From Candidatus Omnitrophota bacterium (GTDB taxonomy: Bacteria > Omnitrophota > Omnitrophia > Omnitrophales > Aquincolibacteriaceae): a stretch of 64,000 bases of DNA. Position numbers and translations under genes: made by a program. The stretch covers positions 984-64,983 of the forward strand of contig JAKLIQ010000002.1 of NCBI GenBank assembly GCA_022709525.1. The letters run 5' to 3'. The number at the start of each line of letters is the position of its first letter. The stretch's first letter is position 1. The notes beneath the pieces were generated by a model. It had not been told where the DNA came from. It saw nothing but the letters and a program-made list of their open reading frames with translations, and searched no databases. Positions 6,264-64,000 of the stretch are shown here, in pieces.

Positions 6264-9200
6264 TTAAGCCGCTGTCTCGATCGACTCCTTCGCTTGGAAT
6301 GCGTTGTTAAATTCCTCGACGGCAACCGACCAGCCGCTCTTGCTATTCCGTTTGAGGAATGAGGACCCGGGCATATCTTCCAGATAGGTTTTCAAAAGTT
6401 CTGGATTTTTGGCGATCGCTTGCTGGGCGCTGCGGCTGAGTATCATATATTTGTAAAGCATATGCTGGACAATAAGCTTGACTACCTGTCTTGCCGCCGG
6501 ATCTGCCAATTTAAAATGATCAAGGTTGGAATTGCAGAGCAAAACCCCCAGCTCGCTAAAACCTATATCCTTGCTGGTGATACCAAACCATAATTCTCGA
6601 CTATCGGCGGTTATCTTGTTTGAAGCAAGCCGGTTCACGTCCTTGCCGGAATAGTTCAGCGGCGTGAAACGGTTTGTGACTTTGTGATAGCCGCGACCCG
6701 GCACATTCTCCTTCTCCTTGCCGTCATAAAAGACCACCAACTGGCGCAATTCCTCCAGCGACTCGATGATCCCCAGGATGTCGCTCGAAGTTCCGGGCGT
6801 GTGGTCCATAAGGATATTAATGGGCACGCCTTTCATTTTTGAGAGGAGTTCCGCGTTAGCCGCTACAAGCTGTTTTACGAGAGCGTTAAGTTTTGCGCGA
6901 TCGTACTGCGTCAGCTCAGCTTCTGCGGTAATTGCAACGGGGGCGGTGGTCAATTCGCCTGCGATGATCGTATTGAGACGGCTGAACTCTGCTGCGGTAT
7001 TGACTAGCCGCGCCTTATCTCCCAATCCGGTTTCAAACGCCGCCCAGGCATCCGGAATACCTAAAATGACCGCGTCGGCATTCGGCAGATTATTCAATAT
7101 TTCAACAAACTCTGCTATCGCGAGATTAAAAAGCGGGGCAAGGTTGCTGAAACCACGCTCCCCGCTCCGCTTTAATTGCGCCAGCACATTTTTTACTTCC
7201 GCGTCTGAAGGGTTCCTGCCAAGCGCCGCCAAAATTTGCGCAGAATCAGAACCCGTCAATAAAGTAAACGAATTGTCAGGACTCACTACTGTGCGAACCT
7301 CGGCCCGCTTAAAAGCCTGATTGAAAGCGCTCTCTCCCGCCAGGGTCTTTGTTGCGTCATTCCGGATCATTTCCAATCCTTCGACCATTTTGACAACAAA
7401 ATCATTCGGAAGCCGCTCTGGATCGGGATAACTCGATCGAGCCGTTTCCAGAAAATTCACTACACGCTCATCCAGAAAAGCGCGGTATTTCAGAAAGAAA
7501 GGAACAATGCCCGGCCTACGCCAATCCGACTCATCAAAAAACCTGTCCCATAGGATCTGCTTGGCTCGAGGGTCTTTTACAGATACCCCCCCATCAAGAT
7601 CTCCGCGCCTGAAAACGGGGATTCCATTCTCCCTTTCGCTGCTGCACCAAAAATTATGAACGAAAGAATCTTCAAAATAGAACCCGAGGATCTCGCCTTC
7701 TCTTATCGATCGGAACGCTTGGAGTAAAAACTCAAGGGAATAAAACGCATAGGATGTCTTTTCCGCCCCCGGTTCTTCCGGAGCTCTCAGAAAAAAATCC
7801 ATTATTGTGAACGCGCTTTTCGGAGGAACCCCGTACCTGTCCTCCAATCCTTCGAACGGTATAAGCTGAAATTCATCCAGAAAGTCGCTATCCCTGTAAT
7901 TGCTTACCGCGATAGGCGAAGTCCAATCCGAAATAAGCAAGGGATAAACATTTTCTGCATCCCGCTGGTCGTCCGCCGCTATATTGGACATTACCAAGTG
8001 GGGAATCTCTTTTTGATTTTTACCGATCATCTCATCCGCAGCGTCCAATTCGCTCTGGGTGGGATAGACTTTTATGGCAACGAGTTTTTCAGGAATTTGA
8101 TCCGAGCCCTGTCTCATTTGCATGGCCAACACGATCAGACTGCTGCCATCATATTTGGTCAGGCGTTGCAGCACTTCATAATACATCGAATCAAACTCGA
8201 CTTTTTTGCCCACTTCCGCCCACCCCGGAGACTTTCCATACGGTTTATATTCCCGGGCATTTCTTGGAATGTTCTGAATTACCTTTTCAAATCGTTCTCG
8301 CCACTTCATCCGCATCTCAGCGCGGACCCGAACGCCTTCCTTTGACTCCAGAACCCCCCTTTCGATAGCTGCTGGTTTTTCGAAAGATTCCAGATCCAAC
8401 CCCGCAACGTTCGGCAAAGTGATCTGGGTAGGGTCGGATATGCCGAGAATTCTGAGCAGATCCGCGACCGTTAAATCCCACAACTCCGGATTTTCTCCCG
8501 TCTTCTCCAAAATATCTCGCAGCAACTTTGCGGTAACTATGGTCTGCTCACGTTTTTCTGAAATCGAAACCGTACGAGCGTTATCCGGAATAATAAGGGC
8601 CTTTTTATAGCCGAAATCCAGCGTCGCAGAAACATACCCCCTATTCCATTCCCCCATTTGAGCCTTCCGGGCTAGATCACTATGCGAAGCGGTCAAAAAT
8701 CCCAAAGGTCTTACGGGGCTGACCGCGACCCGGAGGTCCCGCCCGTATTGAATATTCAAAAGAACATTTCTTTTTTTCACGCCGGGTTGAATATAATTTT
8801 TGAGGATCTCCGGCGCGTCTTCGGCGGACATGCCGCTAAAAAGTTTGTCCCCGAGCCACGACAGCGATTCTTCTTTAAAATACCTCTCCTCCGCCGCACG
8901 CGTTTCAGCGCGGGTTTTCGGGCGATCCGTCCGACGAATGGTGATGCGCCCCTTCGTGTCAATTTCTCCTTCGCCCAACAAATCTTCTGCTGCAAAATCT
9001 CCGCTCCTGATCGTTAATTTTCGGAGACCGTCCCTTTCGGGGCTCGAAACGATCAAGTTGATCCCGTAACCGCTCGTAACATCGCTAATGATCTCTCCCT
9101 GCTTATACTGCTTACTAAAACCGGAAATAATTGCGTCGCTAAAATCCGGCTCTTCGGAAGCGCCGTTCATAAATACATGAAAAACAGATCCCTCGCCGAT

Positions 9201-12200
9201 ACCCCGCTCTTGCAAACGACCTATGGCTGTCGCTATCTGTTGTCTTAGCTCCGCGTCAGAAATATATTCGCCTTTTTTACCCGGGAAGAAGTGAGCTGCT
9301 CCGATCCTTTCCCCGTCTTCTGTTTGGATAAGAACGAACACGCATTGCCCTCCCTGCAAAGCGCCGGATTGAAAAAGCTCTTTTTCAAAAACTCGCATCC
9401 TGTTTTCGCGTACCAAGGTCGGCAGATTTCTTTCAATCGCCTGACCGCTGCGAATATCATACATGGGATTATTTGCATAGCCGTCATCTCGGCGCTTTCC
9501 GGTAACGAGTTCGTATGCCAAGTCTTTGAGGGGCTCGATCCCTGTCGTTTTCTGATACCGAAACGCGGCAAAAATATCGAGCATCATCATTCCGAGAACC
9601 GCAAAAACAGCAACCCACCCCATTCTTGCGATCGCTTCTTTTCCTGATATCCGCAGTTCAGAGCGAAATTCCTGGCGCGAAACTCCGGATTCGGGCTTCG
9701 ACTCTCCGGACTTCAAAAATTGCGACCGCTTGCCTTTTAATTCTGGAAAAATTCTTTCAAGGTAGGGCCACGGATCACCAGGAGGAAAAACATAGAGATC
9801 ATAGTCGACGGAGGTGATCGGGGTGCCCGGAGGATACTCGCTTCGAAGGTCTGCTGGGCTAATACCGCCGCCCAAGCTGTCCGCGTCAGGATCGCCATCA
9901 AGGTCCAAATAAACATTTGCTACGTTCTTTCCTCGCGGCACTAACCAAAAAGTCGGAACATCCCGAGCGCGACCTTCGTTGACAAAACCAATCCCGTAGC
10001 GACCCAGCTTATAAGGCGTTTCGGACAAGAGCCCGCTTACGGTTTCAAGTGGTATCTCTTCCCATAGGCCGTCTTCGGTATTGATAATGATCTTATCGGT
10101 ATCATAAATTCCTGCACCAGGCCCGCCGGGACGGACAAACATGGAACTCGGCTGCCATGTTTTTAATGCTTCGCCAAGCCGAATACGGTCTGGGTCAAAC
10201 TTTGCTCCTGAAAAACCAATCCTTGGTGAAGCGGCCCGAACATTATATTTCACATTTATTTTTAAATAATCAAAACGTCCTTCCTTGTCTTTTTTGGATG
10301 GGCTAATGGTCGCTACAAAGCCATCCGTCTGGATCATGCCGTTGTCGTCAATAAAATCACCGGTCACAACAACGCTTCCCTGAAAACCGCGTCTGAATTT
10401 AAGGTTGTCGATCCTCCCTTTATGGTGATAATTGCCATCGCCATCCCAGTATCCCGGAAACGGAATAAAACTCATGCCCCATTCGACCAAGATCGTCTCG
10501 GTCCTTCCGTCTGGCGTCTTGACGGTCACGGGCATGAGCGTTGCGCGCCAGTAATCTGGCTTGATCGAAATAGATTGGAAATAGTCCATAAGCACTTGGA
10601 AATAAATTTGTACTTCCGAGGCCTCGCCGGCCTTTCCCAAATTCATCATAATGGGAGTACCGTCGGTATCGTCGGCGAGTTTAACAAGAGCGCCATCCTT
10701 ATGATACACTTGGCGTTCTTGAGCCATGCTTGGAGTGGGCAAAGCAACAGCGGCGCCCAGCATGACGCCCGCCAAAAGACTAATTAAATTTTTTCGAGAG
10801 AAAAATCCTCCGCGCGAAATCGGGCTTAGTCTTTCCCCTTGCCTAGCGACGGGCAGGCGCACTTCCGCACGGGATTTTTGATCGGCTTCGGCATTGAGGC
10901 GTATCGCCTCTTCGACGGCGCTTGGAGGTAATTGACCCGGATAGGCGTTGATCATGCCGGAGGAGGTCACTCCAAACACAACCACGCCATTTCCGTCTTC
11001 CCCATATCGTTCTGCATGATCAACAATATCGGGAACTCCTCCATAATAATCGGGAGCATCGGGATCCAGCGAACTTGTGTTATAGCGTGTTACGCTATTT
11101 GTATTTCGATCATAAACAAAAAACGCGTCGCCAAAAAATTCGGCGGTTTCAATCCGGGTTACATTTTCTTCGGCGACCCCATAATCAAACTCCTGCTGGA
11201 AATGGGTCGCATGAACCAATTCATGCAAAATGGTCCGGATAAATATTTCCCATGCTTCCGCCCGATCGCTCATGACCCAATCCATCGCGCCTTGATCAAC
11301 CGTTACGATTTGTCCGCCCTGGACGGCATCCCCGCCTGCTCCGCCCTCATCAGGTCTACCCTCCATCTTTGGACTTATAAAAAAATGATCCTTCCAGTTC
11401 TCGCCAAAAAGTAGGGTCTTTAATTCAGGATTCCTCCCATCGCTCGCCAAGGCCTGAAGCTCTTGCCATGCGGCTTCTATGATTCTCCATTCAGCTTCTG
11501 AGGGTTGACGATATCCCTGCGGCACTTTTACTGGCGATTTAGACCAGCCAACATTGCTTTGGGTTGTCTCACACCCTGCCCCTAAAAATCCTACGGCGGC
11601 TCCTGCCGAGGCTAAACCGACTATTTTCAAAAAGGCGCGACGGGATATTTTCTTGGAGCTAAGACCTGCGGCAATAACAGCGGCAAGACCGGCAGCCACC
11701 AAACCTCCCCGTGACGGCCCTACGCGCTTTTGATCCCGCGCAAGAAAACCCCCAAGTGCGGGAACTGCTTCGTAAAGATTTTCACCAGCCCTAATCTCCG
11801 CTCTGAATGGAAAATCGAACCGATCTAAGCCCTCACGATCTTTCCAACCAAATGCGGCAAAATCAACTTTGACACCACCCGCTTTGGCCTTGAGAAGAAA
11901 CTCATCGCGCGGAAGTTTTTGACCGGGAAAACCATTTGCAAAAGATTTCTGCATATTTTCAACATACAAGTTCTCGTGGATATATAAAACGCTTGCCGGT
12001 TTGTATTGATCTAAAAGATTGGAGAGTAACGCATAAACAGGACTTGAAACGTCTCCGGCATACAAATGATGTAATCCGGTTTCTTCCAATCCTATCATCA
12101 AATGGTTGCTCCCGGTCCTACGCTGACGATCTTCAACGAACTCCTCAAGCGAACCATAACCTAAATATTTAGCAACTCCCACGGTTCGTCGAAGTTGAAC

Positions 12201-14708
12201 TTTTAAAGTTTCTTGGACTGCCAGGTCTGTTTTTTTATCTTTGAAAATCTCTCCTGCGCGCACTTTTTCAGCGGTCAATTTAAGCACCGTTGAGGAAACA
12301 TAACGGACTTGCTGGTTTGCTTCTAGCGCAGGAAGCGCGCCCCAAATATGCTGCGCAGCGCCCTCGACAATAATGAGCGCGGGACCCGGATTAGCCCGAA
12401 GATGAGCGCTTACAGCACTTTCGATTTCAGCCCAACTTGTAATATCCCGTGAAATCGCGTTGGAGGGCTGGTTAGCCAAGGCCTCTTTGTAAGCTTCTTC
12501 GACTACTGGATCTTGCAGATCAAAAAGAGGCATTAAATCACTCAAAAACCCTTCTGCGCCTAATTGGCTTGTCAAATATTCCGCCCTTCTGTCCACGCTT
12601 GTTTTCTCCGAAGATTCATCACGAACCTTGGGCAACTCGGAAACCGGTTTTTCGATTGCTGGTGCAACAATGAGTGGCGCTACAACAGAAATCGCCCCTG
12701 TTGGCGCATAACCGAGGGGTATGCTTCTTGCTCCCGGCTCTAAGGGGCGCTGCGGAGGAATCATTGAAGGTTTGGCTTTGGAAACGTTATCTAAAAGCGC
12801 GGAGACGGTTTGGAGATTTAGTTCCTTTTTCGAAACCAACTCCCGGAGTCCCGTTCCGAATTCCTGGAGCTGCGCCTCGAAACGTTTCCAGATCCCGGCC
12901 AAGGATTCGTCGCGGAAGCGTTCGAGCTCTTTCTGGATCGCGGCGATGATCTCTTCTTTGCTTCTCTTCAACGGCGCTTGACCAAAACGTATTTGCGCGG
13001 GCAAAGCTAGGGCGTCGATATAACGGGTGTACTGCCCCACGTCGGCGATGGTTCCCTTTGCCGCAGCGTTGCGGATCAGTTGATCGCGCCAGGATTTTAG
13101 ATTTCTGTCGAGCCCGGCCAGAGGCAACTCCATCAAGAGTTTTTGCATCGCGGCGCGGGCGAACGCGTCATAAAGCGTCGCATTGGGCGACGGCTTATAC
13201 GAAACATCCCCTTTCATCACGCGCGCATAATTTTCGTAGCCCGTCAATGAATGGATCCGGGGCGTTATCACTAAATGCGAAACGCCGTTGGCCCGGAGGA
13301 TCTTTTTAAGCCCTTCCGTGTGGAAACCTCCGGCGACCATGACCGCGGTCTTCTGTCCCTCCTTGTTCATGAGAGAGGTGAGCCGGTCAAAAAATGCCCG
13401 GTCGCGGGCAAGCGCATGCTCATAAAACTCTAAAGCCGGTTTGACCTTCTCGCGAAAATCCCGATCGCCTAACAGCCCGGCGAAGCTCTCGGGATCCTCC
13501 TGATAGGCCTGGAGCTCCTGATGGGTCAGTTCCAACTTAACGAGATCTTCCAGGATGAAGAGGCGCTCATATTTTTTCGCCAGCTCCCGCTCTTCCGGCT
13601 TTTCTGCCAACGCGGCCATGCTCTCCGGAAGGTATTTCTGCAGTTCATCGAAAAGGCGGCTTCCCTTGATCTCGGAAAGCGTTTCCGTATGCCCGAGCAG
13701 TTTCCGCATCTGCGGGGTTAATTTCGGCCGGAACCCTTTCGATTCGCCGATCCGCACCATGTAAAGCAGGAATTGTCCGGCGCTTAATTTCCCCGTCGAG
13801 AACGCCTGATATTTTCCGTAGAAATTCATTTCCTCTTTGACGCCGAACTGGCGGACATACTTCATTTTGAATTCATTCGCCATCTCGCGGATCATGGGCT
13901 CGAGGGCTTTCTCTTTGCCGGAACGGTCATAGCCGACCGAACTCATAACCTTCGAAAGCTCGGCATAGCGGGACGATTTGGAAGGCCTCAACCCAAGCGC
14001 GTTCAAAGCGAGGAAAAGCTCCAGAACGGAGATGCGCTCGCTGCGGAAACCCTGCCACGCTTCCTGGAAATCGTTCAGCTTCTGCGAATAAACCGATCTG
14101 CGTTCACGATCGAGCTTCTCCTTAAACGATGCGAGACTCTTAAGCAAATCGTCCTTAACCGCCTGGACCTGCAAGTAAGCGCGGTAGTTCCGCTCATAGA
14201 GGTCCCAATTCTCGATACCGTAAAAATTATTTTCTTTTTCGCCGAGGATCGCGGCCATCTCGGGCCCTGTCAACTCAGCCTGTTCCAGATAACCCGTCAT
14301 GACCTTTTGCATGACCTTTGCGTCAGGGAACGCGCGGTAAAGCGTCGGGTCCAGCTTCTCCTTGCCGCCTTCCAAAGCAACGAGACGAACGCCCTGCTCC
14401 TTCTGGAGATATTCGATCAGCCGCTGAATGTTTTCCTGCGCGTCATTGACCGCGTGGGCGTCCTGAATGAGAATGACCGTCTTGTCGCTCGCCGGATCCC
14501 GGAACCTCGCCTGGATCTCGCCGAGAGTGTTCGGTATCGCGATTGCCGCGGTTTGCGACGCGGTCGCCGCAACGGATTGCGCAGCGCCCATATCCCCGCC
14601 GCTGGCAGGGACAGACCACGCGCAGTTCGTTGTCGCGAACACAAACGCGACCACGGCAGCGACTATTCGTCTCCCTTTGTTTTTTTGATACATAGTTTCC
14701 GTGTTCAT
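6264..14708 (-). CDS. Giant secreted or membrane-anchored multidomain protein of about 2815 aa. Paralog of the 8256-aa protein in its N-terminal domain. Contains an HExxH metalloprotease-like motif and internal signal-peptide-like segments.
   Basis: Uninterrupted 8.4 kb ORF. After a short leader, the N-terminus MNTETMYQKNKGRRIVAAVVAFVFATTNCAWSV is a signal peptide or TM anchor. The region around 13050-14600 encodes a domain with ...ILIQDAHAVNDAQENIQRLIEYL...VMVAGGFHTEGLKKILRANGVSHLVITPRI. This is clearly homologous to the N-terminus of the 31421..56191 protein (...VLHVQDAHINEEAQRNIANILRYF...IVTGGFHTPGIEKYLREKDISYIVVAPRI). ILHELVHATHF lies at about 11215-11240. Confidence 0.85.
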   Translation of the reverse strand: MNTETMYQKNKGRRIVAAVVAFVFATTNCAWSVPASGGDMGAAQSVAATASQTAAIAIPNTLGEIQARFRDPASDKTVILIQDAHAVNDAQENIQRLIEYLQKEQGVRLVALEGGKEKLDPTLYRAFPDAKVMQKVMTGYLEQAELTGPEMAAILGEKENNFYGIENWDLYERNYRAYLQVQAVKDDLLKSLASFKEKLDRERRSVYSQKLNDFQEAWQGFRSERISVLELFLALNALGLRPSKSSRYAELSKVMSSVGYDRSGKEKALEPMIREMANEFKMKYVRQFGVKEEMNFYGKYQAFSTGKLSAGQFLLYMVRIGESKGFRPKLTPQMRKLLGHTETLSEIKGSRLFDELQKYLPESMAALAEKPEERELAKKYERLFILEDLVKLELTHQELQAYQEDPESFAGLLGDRDFREKVKPALEFYEHALARDRAFFDRLTSLMNKEGQKTAVMVAGGFHTEGLKKILRANGVSHLVITPRIHSLTGYENYARVMKGDVSYKPSPNATLYDAFARAAMQKLLMELPLAGLDRNLKSWRDQLIRNAAAKGTIADVGQYTRYIDALALPAQIRFGQAPLKRSKEEIIAAIQKELERFRDESLAGIWKRFEAQLQEFGTGLRELVSKKELNLQTVSALLDNVSKAKPSMIPPQRPLEPGARSIPLGYAPTGAISVVAPLIVAPAIEKPVSELPKVRDESSEKTSVDRRAEYLTSQLGAEGFLSDLMPLFDLQDPVVEEAYKEALANQPSNAISRDITSWAEIESAVSAHLRANPGPALIIVEGAAQHIWGALPALEANQQVRYVSSTVLKLTAEKVRAGEIFKDKKTDLAVQETLKVQLRRTVGVAKYLGYGSLEEFVEDRQRRTGSNHLMIGLEETGLHHLYAGDVSSPVYALLSNLLDQYKPASVLYIHENLYVENMQKSFANGFPGQKLPRDEFLLKAKAGGVKVDFAAFGWKDREGLDRFDFPFRAEIRAGENLYEAVPALGGFLARDQKRVGPSRGGLVAAGLAAVIAAGLSSKKISRRAFLKIVGLASAGAAVGFLGAGCETTQSNVGWSKSPVKVPQGYRQPSEAEWRIIEAAWQELQALASDGRNPELKTLLFGENWKDHFFISPKMEGRPDEGGAGGDAVQGGQIVTVDQGAMDWVMSDRAEAWEIFIRTILHELVHATHFQQEFDYGVAEENVTRIETAEFFGDAFFVYDRNTNSVTRYNTSSLDPDAPDYYGGVPDIVDHAERYGEDGNGVVVFGVTSSGMINAYPGQLPPSAVEEAIRLNAEADQKSRAEVRLPVARQGERLSPISRGGFFSRKNLISLLAGVMLGAAVALPTPSMAQERQVYHKDGALVKLADDTDGTPIMMNLGKAGEASEVQIYFQVLMDYFQSISIKPDYWRATLMPVTVKTPDGRTETILVEWGMSFIPFPGYWDGDGNYHHKGRIDNLKFRRGFQGSVVVTGDFIDDNGMIQTDGFVATISPSKKDKEGRFDYLKINVKYNVRAASPRIGFSGAKFDPDRIRLGEALKTWQPSSMFVRPGGPGAGIYDTDKIIINTEDGLWEEIPLETVSGLLSETPYKLGRYGIGFVNEGRARDVPTFWLVPRGKNVANVYLDLDGDPDADSLGGGISPADLRSEYPPGTPITSVDYDLYVFPPGDPWPYLERIFPELKGKRSQFLKSGESKPESGVSRQEFRSELRISGKEAIARMGWVAVFAVLGMMMLDIFAAFRYQKTTGIEPLKDLAYELVTGKRRDDGYANNPMYDIRSGQAIERNLPTLVRENRMRVFEKELFQSGALQGGQCVFVLIQTEDGERIGAAHFFPGKKGEYISDAELRQQIATAIGRLQERGIGEGSVFHVFMNGASEEPDFSDAIISGFSKQYKQGEIISDVTSGYGINLIVSSPERDGLRKLTIRSGDFAAEDLLGEGEIDTKGRITIRRTDRPKTRAETRAAEERYFKEESLSWLGDKLFSGMSAEDAPEILKNYIQPGVKKRNVLLNIQYGRDLRVAVSPVRPLGFLTASHSDLARKAQMGEWNRGYVSATLDFGYKKALIIPDNARTVSISEKREQTIVTAKLLRDILEKTGENPELWDLTVADLLRILGISDPTQITLPNVAGLDLESFEKPAAIERGVLESKEGVRVRAEMRMKWRERFEKVIQNIPRNAREYKPYGKSPGWAEVGKKVEFDSMYYEVLQRLTKYDGSSLIVLAMQMRQGSDQIPEKLVAIKVYPTQSELDAADEMIGKNQKEIPHLVMSNIAADDQRDAENVYPLLISDWTSPIAVSNYRDSDFLDEFQLIPFEGLEDRYGVPPKSAFTIMDFFLRAPEEPGAEKTSYAFYSLEFLLQAFRSIREGEILGFYFEDSFVHNFWCSSERENGIPVFRRGDLDGGVSVKDPRAKQILWDRFFDESDWRRPGIVPFFLKYRAFLDERVVNFLETARSSYPDPERLPNDFVVKMVEGLEMIRNDATKTLAGESAFNQAFKRAEVRTVVSPDNSFTLLTGSDSAQILAALGRNPSDAEVKNVLAQLKRSGERGFSNLAPLFNLAIAEFVEILNNLPNADAVILGIPDAWAAFETGLGDKARLVNTAAEFSRLNTIIAGELTTAPVAITAEAELTQYDRAKLNALVKQLVAANAELLSKMKGVPINILMDHTPGTSSDILGIIESLEELRQLVVFYDGKEKENVPGRGYHKVTNRFTPLNYSGKDVNRLASNKITADSRELWFGITSKDIGFSELGVLLCNSNLDHFKLADPAARQVVKLIVQHMLYKYMILSRSAQQAIAKNPELLKTYLEDMPGSSFLKRNSKSGWSVAVEEFNNAFQAKESIETAA

Positions 14709-14890
14709 AATGTCTTCTTTTTTAAGTCGTAAAATCTTTACACAGCCTCCTTCTCTGCATTCCGCAACCCTTTGCAACAACACTCGTTGCCTCTAGAAAT
14801 ATTTGATTTTTCCTCCAATACAAAAGTAGCATGATAGAGAAGATATTACAAGATATTGAAAAGATTTATATATTATTCAGAGGTTATAAT

Positions 14891-14944: not shown

Positions 14945-15231
14945 TTGCAGAATTTCCCGCGACCCTGAAGCGCGCTCCCGCGCCCGAGCGGGCATGGAGA
15001 TTAAGACAGGGCTTGCGATTCCGGCACCGGCGGTTCGTCATTCCTGCGATAACGACCGCCTGCGCTCTCGTCCCGCAGATTCCTCCTCTTGAGGAAACCA
15101 AGCTCTGCGGGACTCCGAGAGCTGCCTTCACGCAAGCCCTGTCTTATCGAGCGAGGGCAAGGGTGCGAGTGAGTCCCGCCTCGCCGGCGGCGGGACGAAC
15201 GGCGAGGAAGGAGCGGCGGGAAATTCTGCAA
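14945..15231. repeat. MITE-like ~287 bp palindromic element, copy 1, with 16 bp perfect terminal inverted repeats (ttgcagaatttcccgc ... gcgggaaattctgcaa)
   Basis: The whole element is a long imperfect hairpin (e.g. agacagggcttgcg ... cgcaagccctgtct). It shares ends and internal blocks (agcgcgctcccg, ggcaccggcggttc, gagtcccgcctcgc.ggcggcgggacgaa) with the second copy at 18709..18994. No ORF inside is credible. Confidence 0.65.
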
Positions 15232-18708: not shown

Positions 18709-18994
18709 TTGCAGAATTTCCAAGCGATCCGGGAGCGCGCTCCCGAGGCGAAGCGGGCACGGTGCTCTTGAGGTCTCGATTCGGCACCGGCGGTTCTCGA
18801 ATCCAGCGATTCTCACCCGCCTGCGGCCTCGTTCCGCAAATTTTCCGAACGAAAATACGGAAAAACCATGCTTTGCGAAACTCCGGCAGCTGCCTCCGTC
18901 GAGACCTCAAGAGCGAGCGTAGACGAGGGCGCGAAAGAGTCCCGCCTCGCTGGCGGCGGGACGAATGGCGCTGTAGGATGCTTGGAAATTCTGC
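18709..18994. repeat. MITE-like ~286 bp palindromic element, copy 2 (TIR ttgcagaatttccaagc ... gcttggaaattctgc)
   Basis: About 75-80% identical to copy 1 at 14945..15231, in conserved blocks. It has an internal inverted repeat (ctcttgaggtctcga ... tcgagacctcaagag). Confidence 0.65.
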
Positions 18995-24146: not shown

Positions 24147-25223
24147 TCAAGAGGTTAAATTCTCCCGGACCTTCACGATCAGTTCTTTGACCCCCTGCTT
24201 GCGTGCGGCCGAAACAAGGACGCCCTCCGGAAAATTCTCCTGGGCCCTCGTCTTCTCCGCGTCGTTCAAAAGATCGGCCTTGTTTAGCGCGAGAACTTTT
24301 TTCTTGGCCTCCGCTCCCAATTCTTTCAGGACTTCGTCCACCACATATTTATGCTGGATGAAATGCTCGCTTGCCGCATCGACAACAACCAAGATCAGAT
24401 CGGCATCAACAGCTTCCTCAAGCGTCGCATGGAACGCTTTGACAAGTCCGTGCGGCAGATTCCGGATGAACCCGACCGTATCGGTAAAAAGGATCGCGGG
24501 CTCCGTCCCGTCGTTATAGATCCGCGTCTTCGGATCGAGGGTCGCGAAAAGCCGGTTTTCCACATACGCGTCGGCGCCCGTGAGGGCGTTTAAAAGCGTG
24601 GATTTTCCCGCATTGGTGTAACCGACGATGGCCACCTGCCGCAGCCCTTTTTGCCTGCGGCCTTTGCGGATCTGAGCCCGGTGCGTCCGGAGTTTTTCCA
24701 ATTGCGCTTGAATATACTCCATGCGCCGGCGGATCTTACGGCGGTCCACTTCGAGCTTTTGTTCGCCGGGGCCGCGCGTCCCGATGCCGCCTCCAAGACG
24801 CGACATGATCACGCCCTGTCCGACAAGCCGCGGCAGGAGATACTGCATCTGCGCCAGCTCGACCTGGAGTTTTCCATCGCTTGAAACGGCGCGCCTCGCA
24901 AAAATATCGAGGATCAGTCCCGTCCGGTCGACCACCCGGACGCCGCAATCCTCCTCAAGATTCCGCGCCTGGACAGGCGTCAAGTCGACACTGAAGATCA
25001 GAACATTCGCTCCGGTTTTGACGATCTCGTCGCGAAGCTCCCCGATCTTTCCTTTGCGGATAAAATGACTCGGGCTGGGATGAACCACATTGGCCGTCAC
25101 GCTCGCGACCACGCTCCCTTGGGCGGATTCGGTCAGCTCCGTCATCTCCTCCAGGATGTCGCGAGGTTCGGGACAGTCCTTCGCGCCCGTTTTGATGAGG
25201 ACCAGGCAAACTTTATCGCGCAT
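24147..25223 (-). CDS. hflX: GTPase HflX
   Basis: G-domain motifs GYTNAGKSTLLNALTG, DTVGFI, NKAD. GGAGGG lies 9 nt upstream of the MRDKVCLVLI start at 25223. The ORF-track extension to 25331 runs into a palindromic repeat and is probably not translated. Confidence 0.85.
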   Translation of the reverse strand: MRDKVCLVLIKTGAKDCPEPRDILEEMTELTESAQGSVVASVTANVVHPSPSHFIRKGKIGELRDEIVKTGANVLIFSVDLTPVQARNLEEDCGVRVVDRTGLILDIFARRAVSSDGKLQVELAQMQYLLPRLVGQGVIMSRLGGGIGTRGPGEQKLEVDRRKIRRRMEYIQAQLEKLRTHRAQIRKGRRQKGLRQVAIVGYTNAGKSTLLNALTGADAYVENRLFATLDPKTRIYNDGTEPAILFTDTVGFIRNLPHGLVKAFHATLEEAVDADLILVVVDAASEHFIQHKYVVDEVLKELGAEAKKKVLALNKADLLNDAEKTRAQENFPEGVLVSAARKQGVKELIVKVRENLTS

Positions 25224-25252
25224 AACCGTCACCCTCCGGACGACGCGGAAAG

Positions 25253-25318
25253 TCGGGACTAGGGACTCGGGACTCGCCTTGGATTTGACGCGCAACAAGT
25301 CCCGAGGGACGAGTCCCG
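25253..25318. repeat. Small palindromic element family 1 (gggactcgggactcg ... cgagggacgagtccc), copy A
   Basis: Shares the gggactcg / cgagtccc / gggactaggg core with copies at 28490, 29006, 30086 and 30980. Confidence 0.6.
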
Positions 25319-25360
25319 CCGTCTCGATCAAACATTACATGATCCGGTCTTAAATAACTC

Positions 25361-26377
25361 TCAGAGTCCATTTTTTATCATTCTCAGCGCAAAATCTCGC
25401 ACCAGTTTGATCGAAACGGCTTCGGGCCACCAGATCCAGCGGATACCGCGTTCGCGTTTAAACCACGTCCATTGCCTTTTGGCGAAATGGCGCGTCGCCT
25501 GTTTGATGCGGTCTTTCACTGTCCCCAGCGGCGTCTTCTTCAACCCTGTACACACCGGGTGTGTACAGGGTGCCACACCGGGTGTGTACAGGGTGCCAGG
25601 CGTAAGCCAGTCCAGGACTTCTTTATAGCCAACCCCTTGTAACGCGGTTTGGGAAAGTTTCTTTTTCGCCAGGCGCTTTACTTCGCGCGCAAGGCCTTGA
25701 CGGAACATCCGGTCCACGCGGTCGTTGATCTTCCGGTAAAGCGCGGCCCTGTCCCGGTGGAGGCCGATCACGACCGGCTGGTAGCCAAGTTCTTTAAGTC
25801 CGGGTTTTTTAAGGATTGTTTTGGAAGGCTTCTTCCCCGAAACCTCGTAGATCTCCAAAGCGCGGAGGATCCGCCTCTGGTTATGGGGGCCGATGGCCCT
25901 GGCCCGCTTAGGGTCCAGCTTGAGAAGCTGCTTGTAGAGGGCCGGTAAGCCCTTTTTTAGGGCTTCCCGCTCAAGTTTCCGGCGTATTGGAAGATTGCCC
26001 CCCGGCTGAGGCGAAATCCCCTCTAAAAGCCCCCTAATGTAAAAACCCGTTCCTCCCGCCACAATAGGGGTTTTCCCCCGCTTCACGATGTCCTTGATAG
26101 CCTTGAGGGCAAATTGGCGGTAAGCAAAAACAGAGAAATGCTTTGTCGGCGGGATAAGGTCGATCCCGTGATGCGGGATACCGCCGCGTTCTTTTTTTGT
26201 GGGTTTCGCGGTCCCGACATCCATGTCTTTATAGACCAGCATGGAATCCGCGGAAATAACTTCACCGTTGAGTTTTTTTGCGAGCGCGACGGCCAGCGCT
26301 GATTTTCCGGATGCCGTGGGGCCAACGATGAAAAGAACCAAAGACGGTGTCAAAGTATCAAAGTGTCTGTGTGTCAA
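25361..26377 (-). CDS. miaA: tRNA dimethylallyltransferase MiaA, carrying an in-frame palindromic-repeat insertion
   Basis: P-loop IVGPTASGKSALAVALA plus a C-terminal RHFAKRQWTWFKRE. The extra segment PGTLYTPGVAPCTHPVCTG is encoded by the family-2 repeat at 25544-25596. Confidence 0.88.
   Translation of the reverse strand: MTHRHFDTLTPSLVLFIVGPTASGKSALAVALAKKLNGEVISADSMLVYKDMDVGTAKPTKKERGGIPHHGIDLIPPTKHFSVFAYRQFALKAIKDIVKRGKTPIVAGGTGFYIRGLLEGISPQPGGNLPIRRKLEREALKKGLPALYKQLLKLDPKRARAIGPHNQRRILRALEIYEVSGKKPSKTILKKPGLKELGYQPVVIGLHRDRAALYRKINDRVDRMFRQGLAREVKRLAKKKLSQTALQGVGYKEVLDWLTPGTLYTPGVAPCTHPVCTGLKKTPLGTVKDRIKQATRHFAKRQWTWFKRERGIRWIWWPEAVSIKLVRDFALRMIKNGL
25544..25596. repeat. Small palindromic element family 2 (ccctgtacacaccgggtgtgtacaggg, tandem copy and a half), inserted in-frame in miaA
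   Basis: Near-identical copy at 30463-30516, inside nadE. Confidence 0.65.
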
Positions 26378-26380
26378 AAT

Positions 26381-26788
26381 CTACCTCCTCTCCCTTGAGG
26401 GAGAGGACTGAGGTGAGGGGGATTTTAGCGCCCGGACGATTAACGCAAGCACACTTTCCATATTCTGAAGAATCTCATGATTCCAAAACCGAACGATTTG
26501 ATAACCTTTCTTGGTGAGGTAATCCGCACGCAGGAAATCATTTACAGAATCTCCCGAATGCTGTCCGCCATCCACTTCGATGATCAATCTTCGTTCAAAG
26601 CAACAAAAATCGGCAATATATTTTCCTATGGGGTGCTGTCTGCGAAATTTAAAACCGGAAAGTTGTCTGTTTCGAAGATGTAGCCAAAGTTTCTTTTCCG
26701 TATCAGTTTGGTTACGCCGCAACTTGCGGGCTAACAAACCCTCACCCTTCCCTCTCCCTGAAGGGAGAGGGGTGCGTTTTACCGTCAC
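26381..26788 (-). CDS. DUF559 (Vsr-like) endonuclease-domain protein
   Basis: ARKLRRNQTDTEKKLW...IADFCCFERRLIIEVDGGQHS...QIVRFWNHEI matches the DUF559 consensus. It lies between miaA and argS, with its ATG overlapping the argS stop. GGGAGAGG-type palindromes occur at both ends (26385-26406, 26741-26775). Confidence 0.75.
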   Translation of the reverse strand: MTVKRTPLPSGRGKGEGLLARKLRRNQTDTEKKLWLHLRNRQLSGFKFRRQHPIGKYIADFCCFERRLIIEVDGGQHSGDSVNDFLRADYLTKKGYQIVRFWNHEILQNMESVLALIVRALKSPSPQSSPSRERR

Positions 26789-28482: not shown

Positions 28483-28489
28483 ATTTTTA

Positions 28490-28552
28490 CGAGGGACTCG
28501 GGACTCGCACCTCGGGACTCGTTCTTTTATTTTACGAGTCCCTAGTCCCGAG
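28490..28552. repeat. Small palindromic element family 1, copy B (intergenic, argS-rsfS)
   Basis: gggactcgggactcgcacctcgggactcg ... cgagtccctagtcccgag. Confidence 0.6.
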
Positions 28553-28568
28553 CGACAAGCCCCTTTTT

Positions 28569-28901: not shown

Positions 28902-29005
28902 GCAAACTCCTCTTTTTGAAATTTTGCGAATTATAACACAACTCAGACCGAAGACTGAAGACCAAAGACTATCGCCTCCGAACTCGTTTTAGTTCCTCGT
29001 TTTTT

Positions 29006-29034
29006 CGAGTCCCTAGTCCCGGAGAACGAGTCCC
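29006..29034. repeat. Small palindromic element family 1, copy C, overlapping the 3' end of ogt
   Basis: cgagtccctagtcccggagaacgagtccc. Its reverse complement encodes the last six residues (GLVLRD) and the TAG stop of ogt. Confidence 0.6.
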
Positions 29035-29507
29035 TTTTTTTCGTATTCCAACAACCGGCGCTTCCACTGCTTCCCCGCCGAATACTTACCGATCCCGCCG
29101 GTTGCGGGAATGACGCGGTGACACGGGATCACGATCGGTAACCGGTTTTTCCGCATGGCGCTCCCCACCGCGCGCGCGGCGCCGGGATATCCCGTCCGCC
29201 TGGCAAGCTCGCCGTAGCTGATTACTTGTCCGGCCGGCACTTTTTGAAGTGCGCGATAGATCTTTTTCTCAAAAATTGTGCGGCCCGAAAGATCTAATTT
29301 AAAATTTATTTTTCTAGCCGGATCATTGAAATATTGATTCACGGCTTGGGTTGCCTTTATAGAGAACCGGTCTCTTTTTGTAGAGACCGGGTCTCTGCGG
29401 GGTAAGAATGATCCTGGGAACTTTACGGCATAAAGCCCTTTGGGACTTATTTCAAGCTTAAACGTCCCCCACTTTGTTTTTACAGGTATTGGGTAAAGGC
29501 TCTGCAT
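29013..29507 (-). CDS. ogt: Methylated-DNA--protein-cysteine methyltransferase
   Basis: Active-site PCHRVI. The helix-turn-helix segment YGELARRTGYPGAARAVGSAMRKN. 164 aa. Confidence 0.8.
   Translation of the reverse strand: MQSLYPIPVKTKWGTFKLEISPKGLYAVKFPGSFLPRRDPVSTKRDRFSIKATQAVNQYFNDPARKINFKLDLSGRTIFEKKIYRALQKVPAGQVISYGELARRTGYPGAARAVGSAMRKNRLPIVIPCHRVIPATGGIGKYSAGKQWKRRLLEYEKKGLVLRD
29361..29396. repeat. Tandem palindromes agagaaccggtctct / agagaccgggtctct inside the ogt N-terminal domain
   Basis: Read directly. Encodes RRDPVSTKRDRFSI in-frame. Palindromic element family 3. Confidence 0.45.
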
Positions 29508-29556
29508 TGGTTTCTGGCTATAGTCTGTGGTCTATGGTCTGCGGTCTCCGATTTGC

Positions 29557-31281
29557 CTACCCGGCAAATCGGTTCGTGATCGGCATGCGGCGGCCAAACC
29601 ACGCCTTCGGGGTCACGCGCAGAATGGGCGGCGTCTGGCGGCGTTTATACTCGTTATGGTCGACCTTACGGATGGTGTCGGCCACGATCCCGGAAGAAAC
29701 TTTTTTCCTAAGCTTGCGAATGATCTCATCACAGCTCATATTTTTCTCGATATAAAGCGAGAGCACTTCATCCAGGATCTCGTAAGGCGGGAGCGAATCC
29801 TGGTCTTTCTGATTGGGCCGAAGCTCGGCCGAGGGGGCTTTGGTCAAAATAGGTTCCGGGATCACTTTTTTTATGGTGTTGCGATAGCGAGCTAAGCGGT
29901 AAACATCTGTCTTATAAAGATCGCCGATCACCGCAAGACCCCCCGCCATGTCCCCGTAAAGCGTGCAATAACCCATTGCCAGCTCCGATTTATTGCCGGT
30001 CGTCAGGACCAGCCGGCCTTCGTGGTTGGAAAGGAACATAAGCTCCATGCCGCGGAGGCGCGCCTGAAGATTTTCCATCGCTAAACTCGGGACTTGTTCC
30101 TCGGGACTTGTTCCTCGATTGGGTTCCTCGTTTTTGCGAGTCCCTAGTCCCGAGCCCCGAGTCCCGGCTTGGTTTTGGAGAAATGTTTCATACATTTTTT
30201 TAATCGGACGGGTTTCAAACTGAATACCGAGACGCCGCGCTAATTCCTGTGAATCCTTCCAGCTCCCTTCCGAAGAAAAAGGGCCGGGCATCGTGACGCC
30301 TTTGACCGCGTCTTTACCCAAAGCGTCCGCCGCGATCGCCGCGACAAGCGCGGAATCGATCCCGCCGCTTAAGCCGATCACGGCTTTTTTAAATCCGTTC
30401 TTCCTGAAGTAGTCGCGAACGCCAAGAACCAGCGCGTCATAAATTTCTTTCGCCTCTTCGAACCCTGTACACACCGGGTGTGGCACCTCGGTACACACCC
30501 GGTGTGTACAGGGTGGAGCATCGAAAAAGAAAAGATCCTCCTTAAAGGCAGGCGCGCAGAACTGAACCCGTCCTTTTCCGTCGACAAAGAAACTTCGGCC
30601 GTCAAAGATCAGGTCGTCCTGGCCTCCGACCTGATTCACATAAAGGACCGGGAAACCGTAGCGCGCGGCGTGGCCTTTGACGAGCTTCTCACGAGCCGCG
30701 GCGACATCCCGGTAATAGGGCGAGGCGGAAATATTGATGACCAGGTCGGCTTTTTTGCGCGCGAGCGCGGCGAGCGGCTTCACCTTGTAACGCTCGTCCC
30801 AGATATCCTCGCAAATGGTCAGGCCGATCTTGCGGCCTTTCCACGGAATGACTTTCGTTTCGAAGCCGGGACGAAAGAAGATCTCCTCAAGGAAAACGTC
30901 ATAGGTCGGAAGAAGCTGTTTGTGATAGATCTCGCGGATCTTTCCCTTCTCGATCCAGGCAAGGGCGTTGTATGAATTGCCCGGGACTTGGGACTTGGGA
31001 CTCGAAATCCGCTCAATAAAACCAAGGACCACGGCGATGCGTTTGCCCCTGGTAGCAACAGCAATACGCTTGAGACGCTTTAGGCCTTCATTTAGGAATT
31101 GCTTTTTATTGGCAAGGTCCCAGACCGGATAGCCGCAAAGAGCGCATTCGGGGAAAACGACAAGATCCGCGCCCTGGCGTTCCGCCAGATCGATCCAGCG
31201 CAGGATCCTTGCCGTATTGGACTCGTAGTCCCCCACCGTCGGATCCATCTGCGCAATGGCGAATTTTATAGGGGTTTTCAT
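29557..31281 (-). CDS. nadE: Glutamine-dependent NAD+ synthetase (N-terminal C-N hydrolase domain plus NAD synthase domain), with three in-frame repeat insertions
   Basis: N-terminal nitrilase-like domain (FAIAQMDPTVGDY...VVFPECALCGYP). PP-loop AVIGLSGGIDSALVAAIA. 574 aa. Segments GTRGSGLGTRKNEEPNRGTSPEEQVPS, PCTHRVCTEVPHPVCTG and SSPKSQVPGNSY are encoded by the repeat families. Confidence 0.88.
   Translation of the reverse strand: MKTPIKFAIAQMDPTVGDYESNTARILRWIDLAERQGADLVVFPECALCGYPVWDLANKKQFLNEGLKRLKRIAVATRGKRIAVVLGFIERISSPKSQVPGNSYNALAWIEKGKIREIYHKQLLPTYDVFLEEIFFRPGFETKVIPWKGRKIGLTICEDIWDERYKVKPLAALARKKADLVINISASPYYRDVAAAREKLVKGHAARYGFPVLYVNQVGGQDDLIFDGRSFFVDGKGRVQFCAPAFKEDLFFFDAPPCTHRVCTEVPHPVCTGFEEAKEIYDALVLGVRDYFRKNGFKKAVIGLSGGIDSALVAAIAADALGKDAVKGVTMPGPFSSEGSWKDSQELARRLGIQFETRPIKKMYETFLQNQAGTRGSGLGTRKNEEPNRGTSPEEQVPSLAMENLQARLRGMELMFLSNHEGRLVLTTGNKSELAMGYCTLYGDMAGGLAVIGDLYKTDVYRLARYRNTIKKVIPEPILTKAPSAELRPNQKDQDSLPPYEILDEVLSLYIEKNMSCDEIIRKLRKKVSSGIVADTIRKVDHNEYKRRQTPPILRVTPKAWFGRRMPITNRFAG
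30086..30178. repeat. Small palindromic element family 1, copy D, 93 bp, in-frame inside nadE
   Basis: ctcgggacttgttcctcgggacttgttcc ... gcgagtccctagtcccgagccccgagtcccggc. The length is a multiple of 3. Confidence 0.65.
30463..30516. repeat. Small palindromic element family 2 copy, 54 bp, in-frame inside nadE
   Basis: ccctgtacacaccgggtgtggcacctcggtacacacccggtgtgtacagggtgg. Confidence 0.65.
30980..31004. repeat. Family 1 partial copy (cccgggacttgggacttgggactcg) inside nadE
   Basis: Read directly. Confidence 0.45.
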
Positions 31282-31420
31282 AGGCGAGGATTATATCACA
31301 CGCAGACTGGAGACTACAGACTTCAGCGATCAGCTTTCAGTTATCAGTCGTCAGTCACCAGCCAAAAAGATTTTGCTGAAGACCGAGGCTGTGAGCTGAT
31401 ATCTGATAGCTGTCGATGAA

Positions 31421-62006: not shown

Positions 62007-64000
62007 TTATTCTAGCAGAAGCTGGCGTATATCCGCCAGCTGTTCACGGGCCTTTTTCATGCCTTCCGTGATGAACTTGTCAGCCGAAAAAAATTCGATC
62101 CAGTGAGCGTCCGGCACGGAAGCGTGGATAAAAATATCGGCCTCGCTTCCTTCCATCCGCGCGATCTCAAATTCGGTGAACATGATGGTATTCATGAGGG
62201 CATTGAAGATATTCGAAGTATAGCGCCGCTGGATCCTGTCCTTCGTTTTCATCCACATGCGCTTCCAATATCCTTTTTGCTGGAAATTCTGGTGAAAGGC
62301 CTTGCGGCGGAGCTCGTTGCGTTCGATCAGGTCTTTGGGAGCCGGCAGCACATTGACCGCGATGATCTTGCGCACCCCCATGTTCGAGAGGATCTTGACG
62401 GGCAACGGGTCCACGATCCCGCCATCGATGAGATAACTTCCCTTGTAGGGATAAGGCCTGAAAAAACCGGGAATGGAGATCGAGGCGCGGATCGCATTGA
62501 TCACATTGCCGGATTCCAGCACGACTTCTTCGGAGGTCAGCAGATTGGCCGCCACCATTTTGACCGGGATCTTCAGGTCCTGAAAAGTCATGTCCTTAAG
62601 ATGGGCGGATAGAAAACGCCCGATCTGGTCCCCTTTAAAAAACCCCCGGTGGATCGCCGAGATATCCCGGAACCCGAGCAGCTTGAAGAACGCGTTGTTC
62701 TTTTCAACCGACTTGGCGATCTTTTCGATCTCATAAGAATTGTAGCCCGCGGCCCAAAGCGCGCCGAGCAGGGCGCCGATGCTGGAGCCCGCGATGATAT
62801 CGACGGGGATCTTTTCCTGCTCGAGGACCCGGAGAACGCCGATATGCGCAAGGCCGTACGCAGCGCCGCTTCCGAGCGCTAGGCCGACAAGCCGCTCCGA
62901 CCACTCCTTAGCGAGAAAAGTAAGTGTTTTCTCATATTGGTAGCGCTGGTATTGAAGAGAGGGTAATGTGGAAAAAAGCTGAAGTTCCGCCGCTGATTCC
63001 GCAGGGATCTCTTTGCCTTCCTGGGACGGCAGGATGATCTTGATCTCATTGCGGTTAAATCCGAAATCCTGGCAAAGCTCGGCGACTTTCTTGGCAGCGA
63101 AAGTAAAAACATCGGCGCGCTTTTCGGCCCAAAGATAAACGCGGTCCGAGTAATTAAGCGCTTTGACGGCCACGGGGGTATTCCGGTCCGGCAGCGCGAT
63201 CACGAGATAGTCGTAGCGGTAGGTCAGAAGGGTTAAAAGCGCCGTGAACTTCGTCTCCTCCTCGTCCAGGGCGGCATTCACGGGAAAGGACAGAAAATCG
63301 AAATTTTGATCGTCCGTCTGGATGGCCTTCTGGACGGCCGATTCGCTCGAGGGGTCCATGGTCTTGAGATCAAAACCCGCAATATCGCCTCGACGGAATT
63401 CCGCCGGCAAAAGACTTTTGATCTTCCCGGAGAGGTCCATCAAAAGCACTTTGCTTTGGGTTTCCTTCCGGAGGGCTTTGATAAAGTCCGTGAGAAAACG
63501 GGCCATCCCCTCTGACGAAGCCGCAAAATAAAATGAGGCGATGCGGACCTCGCGCCGGTGCTGGCTGTAGCCGAGCTCCTCACGCGTCAGATGCCGTCCG
63601 AGCGAACGGCTCAGGTGGAGGGCCAGCGTCGGGATCTGATGAAGAAGTTTCTGGAAATCCTCGGCGCCTATCTTGAGCGCGACGGCGTCCGTTTTGGCCT
63701 CGACCGAGGCGCTGTGGACGCTGCCTGTCAAAAGCGAGGTTTCTCCGAAATGTTCGCCACGGTAAAAATAAAGGAGTGTGGATTCTTTGTCGGGCCCTCT
63801 GGCGCGGGTAAAGAGGCGGAAGCGGCCGGAAATAATGATGTAAAAAGCGTCAGGAACCGCCCCTTCCTCATAGACGATATCGCCCCGCTTGAAGCCGACA
63901 AGACGAGAATGCTGCTCGATCAGCGCCTGCTCCTCGGAGGTCAGGGACGAAAAAAGCGGGATCGGGTCCAGAAGACGGGTTTCCTTGGATTCGGGCTTGT
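62007..64000 (-). CDS. Cyclic-nucleotide-binding domain plus patatin-like phospholipase. The N-terminus runs off the window end.
   Basis: Patatin motifs GLALGSGAAYGLAHIGVL and GSSIGAL. Hand translation of 63732-64000 continues in-frame with no stop (..EQHSRLVGFKRGDIVYEEGAVPDAFYIIISGRFRLF..YFYRGEHFGETSLL), so the cNMP-binding domain continues past the window. The ORF-track start at 63731 is a TTG. Confidence 0.85.
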   Translation of the reverse strand, partial: KPESKETRLLDPIPLFSSLTSEEQALIEQHSRLVGFKRGDIVYEEGAVPDAFYIIISGRFRLFTRARGPDKESTLLYFYRGEHFGETSLLTGSVHSASVEAKTDAVALKIGAEDFQKLLHQIPTLALHLSRSLGRHLTREELGYSQHRREVRIASFYFAASSEGMARFLTDFIKALRKETQSKVLLMDLSGKIKSLLPAEFRRGDIAGFDLKTMDPSSESAVQKAIQTDDQNFDFLSFPVNAALDEEETKFTALLTLLTYRYDYLVIALPDRNTPVAVKALNYSDRVYLWAEKRADVFTFAAKKVAELCQDFGFNRNEIKIILPSQEGKEIPAESAAELQLFSTLPSLQYQRYQYEKTLTFLAKEWSERLVGLALGSGAAYGLAHIGVLRVLEQEKIPVDIIAGSSIGALLGALWAAGYNSYEIEKIAKSVEKNNAFFKLLGFRDISAIHRGFFKGDQIGRFLSAHLKDMTFQDLKIPVKMVAANLLTSEEVVLESGNVINAIRASISIPGFFRPYPYKGSYLIDGGIVDPLPVKILSNMGVRKIIAVNVLPAPKDLIERNELRRKAFHQNFQQKGYWKRMWMKTKDRIQRRYTSNIFNALMNTIMFTEFEIARMEGSEADIFIHASVPDAHWIEFFSADKFITEGMKKAREQLADIRQLLLE

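Follow-up and report, generated by a model that had tools for sequence, protein, structure and literature searches.

The window analysed here is a stretch of 64,000 nt, and its host is Candidatus Omnitrophota by the names of Ogt homologues. The genes nadE, ogt, rsfS, and argS follow one another in an order that is kept in every relative fetched, and sites at the ogt end are therefore regarded as orthologous. Features of the locus are given below with their window coordinates.

29557–31281, minus strand: nadE
30983–31003, minus strand: three tandem heptamers in nadE, GGGACTT GGGACTT GGGACTC, 21 nt, part of the peptide SSPKSQVPG
30085–30165, minus strand: repeat family copy in frame inside nadE, GTRGSGLGTRKNEEPNRGTSPEEQVPS; fold z = −4.0; core read as Leu-Gly
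29013–29507, minus strand: ogt, methylated-DNA-protein-cysteine methyltransferase, 164 aa
29013–29015, minus strand: stop codon now used by ogt, TAG, supplied by CTAG of the repeat core
29006–29034, minus strand: left arm of the ogt repeat copy, GGGACTC GTTCTCC GGGACTA GGGACTC G, encoding G159–D164 and the stop
28987–29005, minus strand: loop of the ogt repeat copy, AAAAAACGAGGAACTAAAA, untranslated
28975–28986, minus strand: right-arm remnant of the ogt repeat copy, CGAGTTCGGAGG, 12 nt
28969–28974, minus strand: relict ancestral Arg-stop, CGA TAG, 38 nt past the new stop and out of frame
28944–28971, minus strand: second heptamer array, TAGTCTT TGGTCTT CAGTCTT CGGTCTG, TRF period 7
28930–28940, minus strand: extended −10-like box before rsfS, TGTGTTATAAT, kept in the window and in relatives L002, L003, L089, and L205
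28493–28563, minus strand: rsfS-argS spacer, family copy with an intact hairpin; folding energy as RNA −40.5 kcal/mol (z = −5.7); 85 of 86 nt shared with L003
25251–25318, plus strand (opposite orientation): family copy between miaA and hflX; fold z = −4.0

The frame at 29013–29507, the only long ORF at this place, codes for a genuine Ogt/MGMT. The domain PF01035 (DNA_binding_1) matches residues 79–157 (E = 8e-31), and C129, H130, R131, and V132 are invariant in comparison with 41 relatives (alignment A1), the PCHR active-site motif being intact. The protein ends with ...EYEKK-GLVLRD*, written also as ...LLEYEKKGLVLRD or ...WKRRLLEYEKKGLVLRD (ORF translation), and GLVLRD lies beyond the domain end (residue 157 of 164). 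On the plus strand, positions 29006–29034 read cgagtccctagtcccggagaacgagtccc, while the reverse complement of 29013–29033 is GGA CTC GTT CTC CGG GAC TAG, that is G L V L R D and stop. The sequence-only reading that preceded this work, according to which a repeat supplies the last six codons and the stop of ogt, is thus borne out for the end of 29013..29507. The frame enters the repeat with the G of the first heptamer unit as the third base of the K158 codon; with this junction Lys codon counted, up to seven codons and the stop stand in place of the ancestral Arg-stop.

Ogt tails are hypervariable among the 42 aligned relatives. Seven of them end with ...EKR, and tails of several others resemble translated repeats (QRATVNAQR, VSxCQ, GPGTRKKRGTK). 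Judging from its position beyond the conserved domain and from tails that differ in almost every relative, the ogt tail is most likely selectively neutral. Another repeated segment is located inside the gene, at 29356–29396, where a 21-nt unit is present twice, each time with palindromic AGAGACC/GGTCTCT cores. The two units encode PRRDPVSTKRDRF within the hypervariable linker between the N-terminal part of Ogt and the PF01035 domain, and the same segment was also scored as a terminator-like hairpin on the minus strand in a promoter/terminator scan.

The left arm of the ogt copy matches the family core CGGGACTAGGGACTCG, and its loop is the same as in the nadE copy and in copies from metagenomes (TAAAAACGAGGAACCCAAG). 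Identity with the nadE copy is 83% over 52 nt (family D1). In the right arm, 21 nt corresponding to three heptamers are absent in comparison with L205 (alignment A5). The RNA fold of this copy (−17.4 kcal/mol, z = −0.96) is not better than that of shuffled sequences. The ogt copy is accordingly a truncated member of the family, with the core, its flanking spacer heptamer, and the loop present and without a stable hairpin of complementary arms. No terminator-like site was found by the promoter/terminator scan on the minus strand at 28975–29034, T-runs being located on the non-coding plus strand, and the hairpins are not followed by the sense-strand U-tract expected of intrinsic terminators.

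All copies of the family are made of 7-nt units, GGGACTC/A/T and their complement. The 14-mer core GAGTCCCTAGTCCC is found four times in the window without mismatch, at 25255–25268 (minus), 28536–28549 (plus), 29007–29020 (plus), and 30138–30151 (plus). When up to three mismatches are allowed, 11 matches are obtained, whereas shuffled sequences give 3.2 on average and 8 at most. The element is about 80 nt long and is composed of four GGGACTN-type heptamers, an A-rich loop with CGAGGAAC, and four inverted heptamers. When intact copies are read along the strand of the gene, CGGGACTAGGGACTCG falls in the left arm, which has about four heptamers, CGAGGAAC falls in the loop, and the inverted right arm is a repetition of (N)AGTCCC. 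Period-7 arrays were detected by TRF at 25253, 28493, 30137, and 30983. In total, TRF reported nine period-7 rows, some of them overlapping, all within 25.2–31.4 kb of the window, and period 7 is enriched with respect to periods 6 and 8–11 as well as to shuffles. Restriction of the repeats to this cluster of small genes (25–31.4 kb) is partly explained by two giant ORFs. These ORFs, at 31421–56191 (8256 aa) and 6264–14783 (2839 aa), fill more than half of the window.

A search of 24.8–31.5 kb against Rfam 15 with permissive E-values gave nothing for the GGGACT hairpins; sub-threshold microRNA-like matches were obtained only to the other palindrome family. No transposase domain was detected in ten large window ORFs, and there is no RAYT gene among the ORFs scanned. 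The longest hflX ORF contains the copy between miaA and hflX and translates it as GLVPRD once more. This ORF (24147–25331) starts with TTG within the repeat copy and begins with MIETAGLVPRDLL..., and GLVPRD is the tail peptide of Ogt in L003. The true hflX start is probably the downstream Met (MRDKVCLV...).

In nadE, the family copy is translated in frame. Minus-strand codons 30147–30145 and 30144–30142 are CTA GGG, read as Leu-Gly within ...GSGLGTRKNEE..., in agreement with the earlier statement that nadE reads the same ctaggg core in this way. The element appears as a net insertion of 18 aa with respect to eight NadE homologues (alignment A3) and to L090 and L091 (A4); outgroup NadE sequences aligned from genome contigs were relatives of 46% identity at most, too distant to polarise the event. 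At the site of the window element (30085–30165), L091 has almost no insert, and L090 has three GCCACGG-type heptamers in frame (21 nt, 1930–1950). The N-terminal loop with tandem heptamers (30983–31003) is equal in length in the window, L090, and L091, but it is made of different heptamer-like DNA.

Several other palindromic or repeated segments were observed in the surroundings. Two housekeeping genes, miaA (25541–25595) and nadE (30460–30515), contain translated in-frame sequence of a second repeat family. This family is the near-perfect palindrome CCCTGTACACACCGGGTGTGTACAGGG in two tandem or overlapping copies, reading GTLYTPGVAPCTHPVCTG in miaA and PPCTHRVCTEVPHPVCTG in nadE, where it falls in the variable linker between two domains. 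In a perfect 10-bp hairpin, CCGATTTGCC-gggta-GGCAAATCGG (29548–29572), the boundary of stem and loop falls within the nadE stop TAG (29557–29559). This hairpin encodes the last NadE residues and is directly followed by AGACC heptamers; it is kept in L002 and not in L089. The ORF at 62007..63731 (574 aa), considered as a nadE paralogue, was rejected because it corresponds to a patatin-like protein.

Spacers around ogt carry heptamers of other types. The first unit of the array at 28944–28971 held the ancestral ogt stop, and the array is invariant in the window, L004, L003, L001, and L002 (alignment A2). It abuts the conserved TGTGTTATAAT box, a putative promoter of rsfS, and the array's complete identity among the window, L003, and L002 exceeds conservation of the genes. 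The array is part of a third heptamer family, AGACYNN/NNRGTCT, found at 28944–28971, 29518–29547, and 31302–31322, whose arrays lie in inverted orientation on both sides of ogt and again upstream of nadE. The possibility that inverted AGACC arrays delimit ogt as a mobile cassette was rejected on the basis of the nadE-ogt-rsfS-argS synteny kept in all relatives. About eight CTGAnnn heptamers precede TGTGATATAAT before nadE (31300–31360).

Every lineage examined has a hairpin built of heptamers in the rsfS-argS spacer, and the unit differs among lineages. It is GGGACTN in the window (28483–28568), L003, and L091, GGATGNN in L002 (1320–1411), GTACGGN in L089 (971–1047), and GCNCAAC in L205 (1751–1829). 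In L089, the GTACGGN unit fills the nadE-ogt spacer as well. The pattern is one of a constant site with a changing heptamer.

More distant from ogt, a small DUF559 gene (PF04480/MTES_1575) is located between argS and miaA (26381–26788), with two similar palindromes TCCTCTCCCT..AGGGAGAGGA just inside its ends (26386–26407 and 26749–26772). L003 has this gene as well, whereas L090 and L091 lack it where argS meets miaA, so that the gene may represent a small cassette which was inserted. A pair of stretches, each about 250 nt long (14959–15212 and 18724–18978; families D4 and D20), 79–82% identical over matched pieces and 3765 nt apart, flank a CitMHS-type transporter gene and an SNF-family symporter gene.

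To follow the ogt end among relatives, C-termini of Ogt were compared in genomes with and without the repeat, as had been proposed, and empty, remnant, and full sites were found.

L089, Ogt 63% identical: no repeat, GAG AAA CGA TAG, TCTTTGACC (TAG TCTT); ends with ...EKR*
L002/L001, Ogt 81% identical: 18-nt in-frame remnant AAG GGA CTA GTC CCG AAG before CGA TAG; GLVPKR*
L205 (P0028), Ogt 56% identical: complete element followed by GGA TAG TCTT; in-frame read-through with a 28-residue tail to the same old TAG
L091 (P0034), Ogt 52% identical: complete element with CCAG for CTAG; third frame, ends at the right-arm TAA
L003, Ogt 86% identical over its 94-aa call: left arm, loop, and 12 nt of right arm; GLVPRD*
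Window and L004–L008, Ogt identical (100%): left arm, loop, and 12 nt of right arm; GLVLRD*

Among L004–L008, the site itself was aligned for L004, and its state in L005–L008 is deduced from the identical Ogt and the same 111-nt ogt-rsfS spacing. The remnant in L002 contains the perfect palindrome GGGACT·AGTCCC. The same CGATAGTCTT found as a relict in the window terminates ogt in L089 and L002, and GGATAGTCTT does so in L205. In comparison with L089, extra DNA at the site comprises 62 nt in the window, L003, and L004. As 62 is not a multiple of three, the frame is shifted and the core TAG becomes the stop of ogt. The number of bases from the TAC/TAT codon to the first GGGACTC is 6 in L091, 7 in L205, and 8 in the window, and due to this difference at the junction three lineages use three different frames. 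This comparison shows that the repeat supplies both the tail and the stop of ogt and that the ancestral stop can still be recognised; with lineages and genes taken together, each of the three frames of the element is in use. No relative carrying the GLVLRD tail without the repeat sequence was found, so the observation named in advance as contrary to the proposal did not turn up. The ogt-site copy of L091 (3039–3070) has CCAGG where the family core has CTAGG, which removes a potential stop; one may speculate that this is the change expected from very-short-patch (Vsr/Dcm-type) repair.

Conservation between the window and L003 differs along the locus. Identity is about 90% in the ogt element and 84.6% in the ogt coding region, 95.5% in rsfS, 93.7% in argS, 98.8% in the rsfS-argS hairpin, and 100% in the TAGTCTT array together with the rsfS promoter region. 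Divergence of the ogt element and the ogt coding region is greater than in the sequences around them, which also speaks for a neutral tail. These values fit with constraint on the intact hairpins and on the promoter-proximal array while the ogt copy decays, the numbers being small and the difference between the intact and the decayed copy resting on few sites (1/86 and 6/60, respectively).

Taken together, we find it highly probable that the ogt 3′ end arose by translation running on into a dispersed hairpin repeat, here in an old and eroded copy. The complete hairpin would have arrived at the ogt site before these lineages split; it is lodged after the penultimate Lys codon and before the CGA TAG (Arg-stop) of the ancestral gene. 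Subsequently, the lineage of the window would have lost three heptamers of the right arm, 21 nt being an exact multiple of the unit, and the lineage of L002 the 44-nt interior of the element, both presumably by slippage across tandem repeats or the hairpin. Translation enters as AAG GGA CTC GTT CTC CGG GAC TAG and ends at the core CTAG. Remodelling was a process in several steps, in which the frame set at the A-run junction combined with deletions. The initial suggestion that the element remodelled the ogt 3′ end holds, given that L089 without the repeat ends with ...EKR* and the window, with 62 extra nt, stops at the TAG of the repeat. It needs refinement as to age: the same element occupies the site in L205 and L091, and the copy is consequently old and eroded, not a fresh insertion.

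The order of events cannot be proven by comparing L089, L090, L091, and L205. RsfS identity to the window is 85–88% for L089, L090, and L091, and because these three are about equally distant, the element could have entered the site more than once. The 18-nt palindrome of L002 could be a precursor rather than a product of deletion, and a full copy might be regrown from the 12-nt palindrome by conversion from another copy. Copies may generally spread by transposition or by gene conversion between hairpins. Mobility is putative: no transposase domain was detected in the ten large window ORFs, and comparison of filled sites (window, L205) with the empty one (L089) revealed neither a target-site duplication nor any flanking direct repeat. 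Intact copies at cistron boundaries may have a REP-like role, forming hairpins in RNA or DNA that protect mRNA 3′ ends or serve in their processing, an ability which the ogt copy would no longer have.

Outside the window, the 16-nt core matched at least 112 metagenome contigs. About 16 of them, with GC near 0.5, contain the same element of ~80 nt with the same loop at unrelated loci; most of these copies begin a few nt after a stop codon, and two are inside very long ORFs. In many high-GC contigs, (GGGACTN)n and (NAGTCCC)n arrays stand opposite each other with other loops between them; literal (CCCCAGT)n runs, present in soil contigs, are among these arrays. Many of the 16-mer matches in metagenomes are without further heptamers and may be due to chance in a very large database. 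In viral contigs, four matches to the core 16-mer were obtained: in L209 and L210 the core is followed by further heptamers, and the remaining two matches represent a single sequence with nothing beyond the 16-mer. The Omnitrophota loop is absent from all four.

A different origin of the hairpin has to be considered, in which the host keeps some hairpin at this site at all times, in the function of a terminator, of a processing site, or of an mRNA stabiliser located past the nadE-ogt unit and ahead of the rsfS promoter. Heptamers would then turn over or be homogenised in situ, with the stop drifting in and out, and the apparent insertion would not reflect a selfish mobile element arriving there. 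Some features speak for it: a hairpin or heptamer array of differing unit is present after ogt or in nearby spacers in every lineage (L207, for example, has an 18-bp CCAGTGCC hairpin after ogt), the nadE N-terminal loop retains its length in the window, L090, and L091 with different heptamer-like DNA, and conservation of the intact hairpin exceeds that of the genes beside it. However, L089 has no hairpin between ogt and the TAGTCTT array, and the window copy no longer folds, which means that a hairpin is not required here. Furthermore, hairpins are not followed by a sense-strand U-tract, and occurrence of the same ~80-nt element with its loop at unrelated loci and inside ORFs is the pattern of a dispersed element. 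We regard in-situ turnover as possible, though rather doubtful; it concerns origin and not the observation itself, and is compatible with read-through into an old copy.

Much less room is left for the view that GLVLRD is an ancestral or selected tail whose likeness to the repeat is coincidental, or, in a variant, that the repeats derive from the gene end. The closest relatives indeed share GLV (GLVPRD in L003, GLVPKR in L002), but the codons differ (GGA CTC GTT and GGA CTA GTC), both being repeat-arm sequence. The exact 14-mer and 83% identity over 52 nt to the nadE copy, the outgroup without the tail, the ancestral stop visible downstream, the family on many unrelated contigs, and the position of the tail outside the Pfam domain all make this view very improbable. 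Short repeats can also cause mis-joins in metagenome assemblies, and two related contigs, L006 and L008, show split nadE calls, so that a repeat mis-assembled onto the ogt end or an erroneous gene call might be suspected. Against this, six contigs (five places shown, from five ENA and JGI samples) agree in the Ogt protein and in an ogt-rsfS spacing of 111 nt, and the architecture is repeated in L003, which comes from a different assembly and carries substitutions of its own; spacer sequence was compared for L004 only. Recurrence on six contigs excludes an assembly artefact for practical purposes, and its probability is the lowest among the explanations considered. The reading preferred for the ogt end remains that of an old and eroded dispersed copy.

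For ogt itself the event has little weight, since a non-conserved tail was replaced on an otherwise intact repair enzyme, by all appearance a harmless and fairly ordinary side effect of repeat turnover. It offers a stepwise example of how a gene end is rewritten, from the empty site through the in-frame remnant and full read-through in two frames to the truncated copy with a new stop. It is also a warning for annotation, because tails of Omnitrophota Ogt, as well as tails and loops of other proteins, are often derived from repeats.

The heptamer-hairpin system as a whole is a more interesting lead than the ogt event. Units recorded by lineage are GGGACTN, AGACYNN, GGATGNN, GTACGGN, GCNCAAC, and GCCACGG, and GGGACTN/CCCCAGT arrays occur in contigs of 46–72% GC. 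It is conceivable, although we consider it unlikely, that several families of heptamer units in Omnitrophota fill the same permissive sites (cistron boundaries, promoter-proximal regions, and protein surface loops) in different lineages, as an undescribed STRR-like system with an active mechanism. If true, 7-nt units would be added from a template or homogenised, or a heptamer-binding factor would co-evolve with them, and gene ends such as that of ogt would be continuously rewritten.

A full-text search for Omnitrophota repeats, heptamer strings, and STRR sequences did not reveal a description of the GGGACTN family, which is apparently undescribed but similar to known classes. REP and BIME sequences are short dispersed imperfect palindromes just after stop codons in operons, thought to form mRNA hairpins and associated with RAYT transposases; in REPs, a conserved 5′ tetranucleotide of the GTAG type lies next to a palindrome of 20–40 nt. 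GGGACTN copies are likewise placed after stop codons. They differ from REPs by heptamer substructure, by the absence of GTAG (copies begin with GGGACTC or AAAGGG), and by the absence of RAYT among 10 window ORFs. The element resembles MITEs in its dispersal and inverted arms. These arms consist of heptamer arrays in inverted orientation, within an element that forms a single hairpin and is not a unique core flanked by TIRs; in addition, there is no target-site duplication at the ogt site and no transposase domain in the ten large window ORFs.

Rickettsia palindromic elements (RPEs), 100–150 bp long and restricted to that genus, encode a conserved peptide in one frame. They are palindromic repeats inserted in frame in housekeeping genes and translated within the protein (PMC10969869). 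The 18-aa insert in nadE and the ogt tail are comparable in-frame insertions, a particularly marked resemblance, though in behaviour only; the GGGACTN element is about 80 nt long, built of heptamers, and read in all three frames. Direct repeats of the heptamer TAACTGA are known from Beggiatoaceae, Cyanobacteria, and Bacteroidetes, mostly a few nt before start codons, and those of Beggiatoaceae are reported to overlap the stop codon of the upstream gene in 13 cases (PMC4679880). Heptamer arrays at gene boundaries are common to both, the overlap with stop codons is the same kind of event as in ogt, and CTGAnnn heptamers are present just upstream of nadE in the window; the unit is different, and TAACTGA repeats are direct and do not form hairpins. 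Having other units, another phylum as host, and neither GTAG, target duplication, nor transposase, the GGGACTN family is not an established member of STRR, TAACTGA repeats, RPE, REP, or MITE.

[quoted passage not shown] The STRR1 heptamer is reportedly CCCCAGT. Tandem 7-nt units are shared with the family described here, and NAGTCCC/GGGACTN matches STRR1 in 6 of 7 positions. The units GGGACT[C/A/T] and NNGGTCT/NNAGTCT are not identical to STRR1/2/3, the host belongs to Omnitrophota and is not a cyanobacterium, and arrays are inverted around a conserved loop into a defined hairpin of ~80 nt. An STRR inside the RNase P RNA gene is indicated by the title of Vioque 1997, cited in PMC4748335. Comparative genomics of how the heptamer-hairpin family of this candidate phylum turns over at constant sites could put the origin of STRR repeats to the test.
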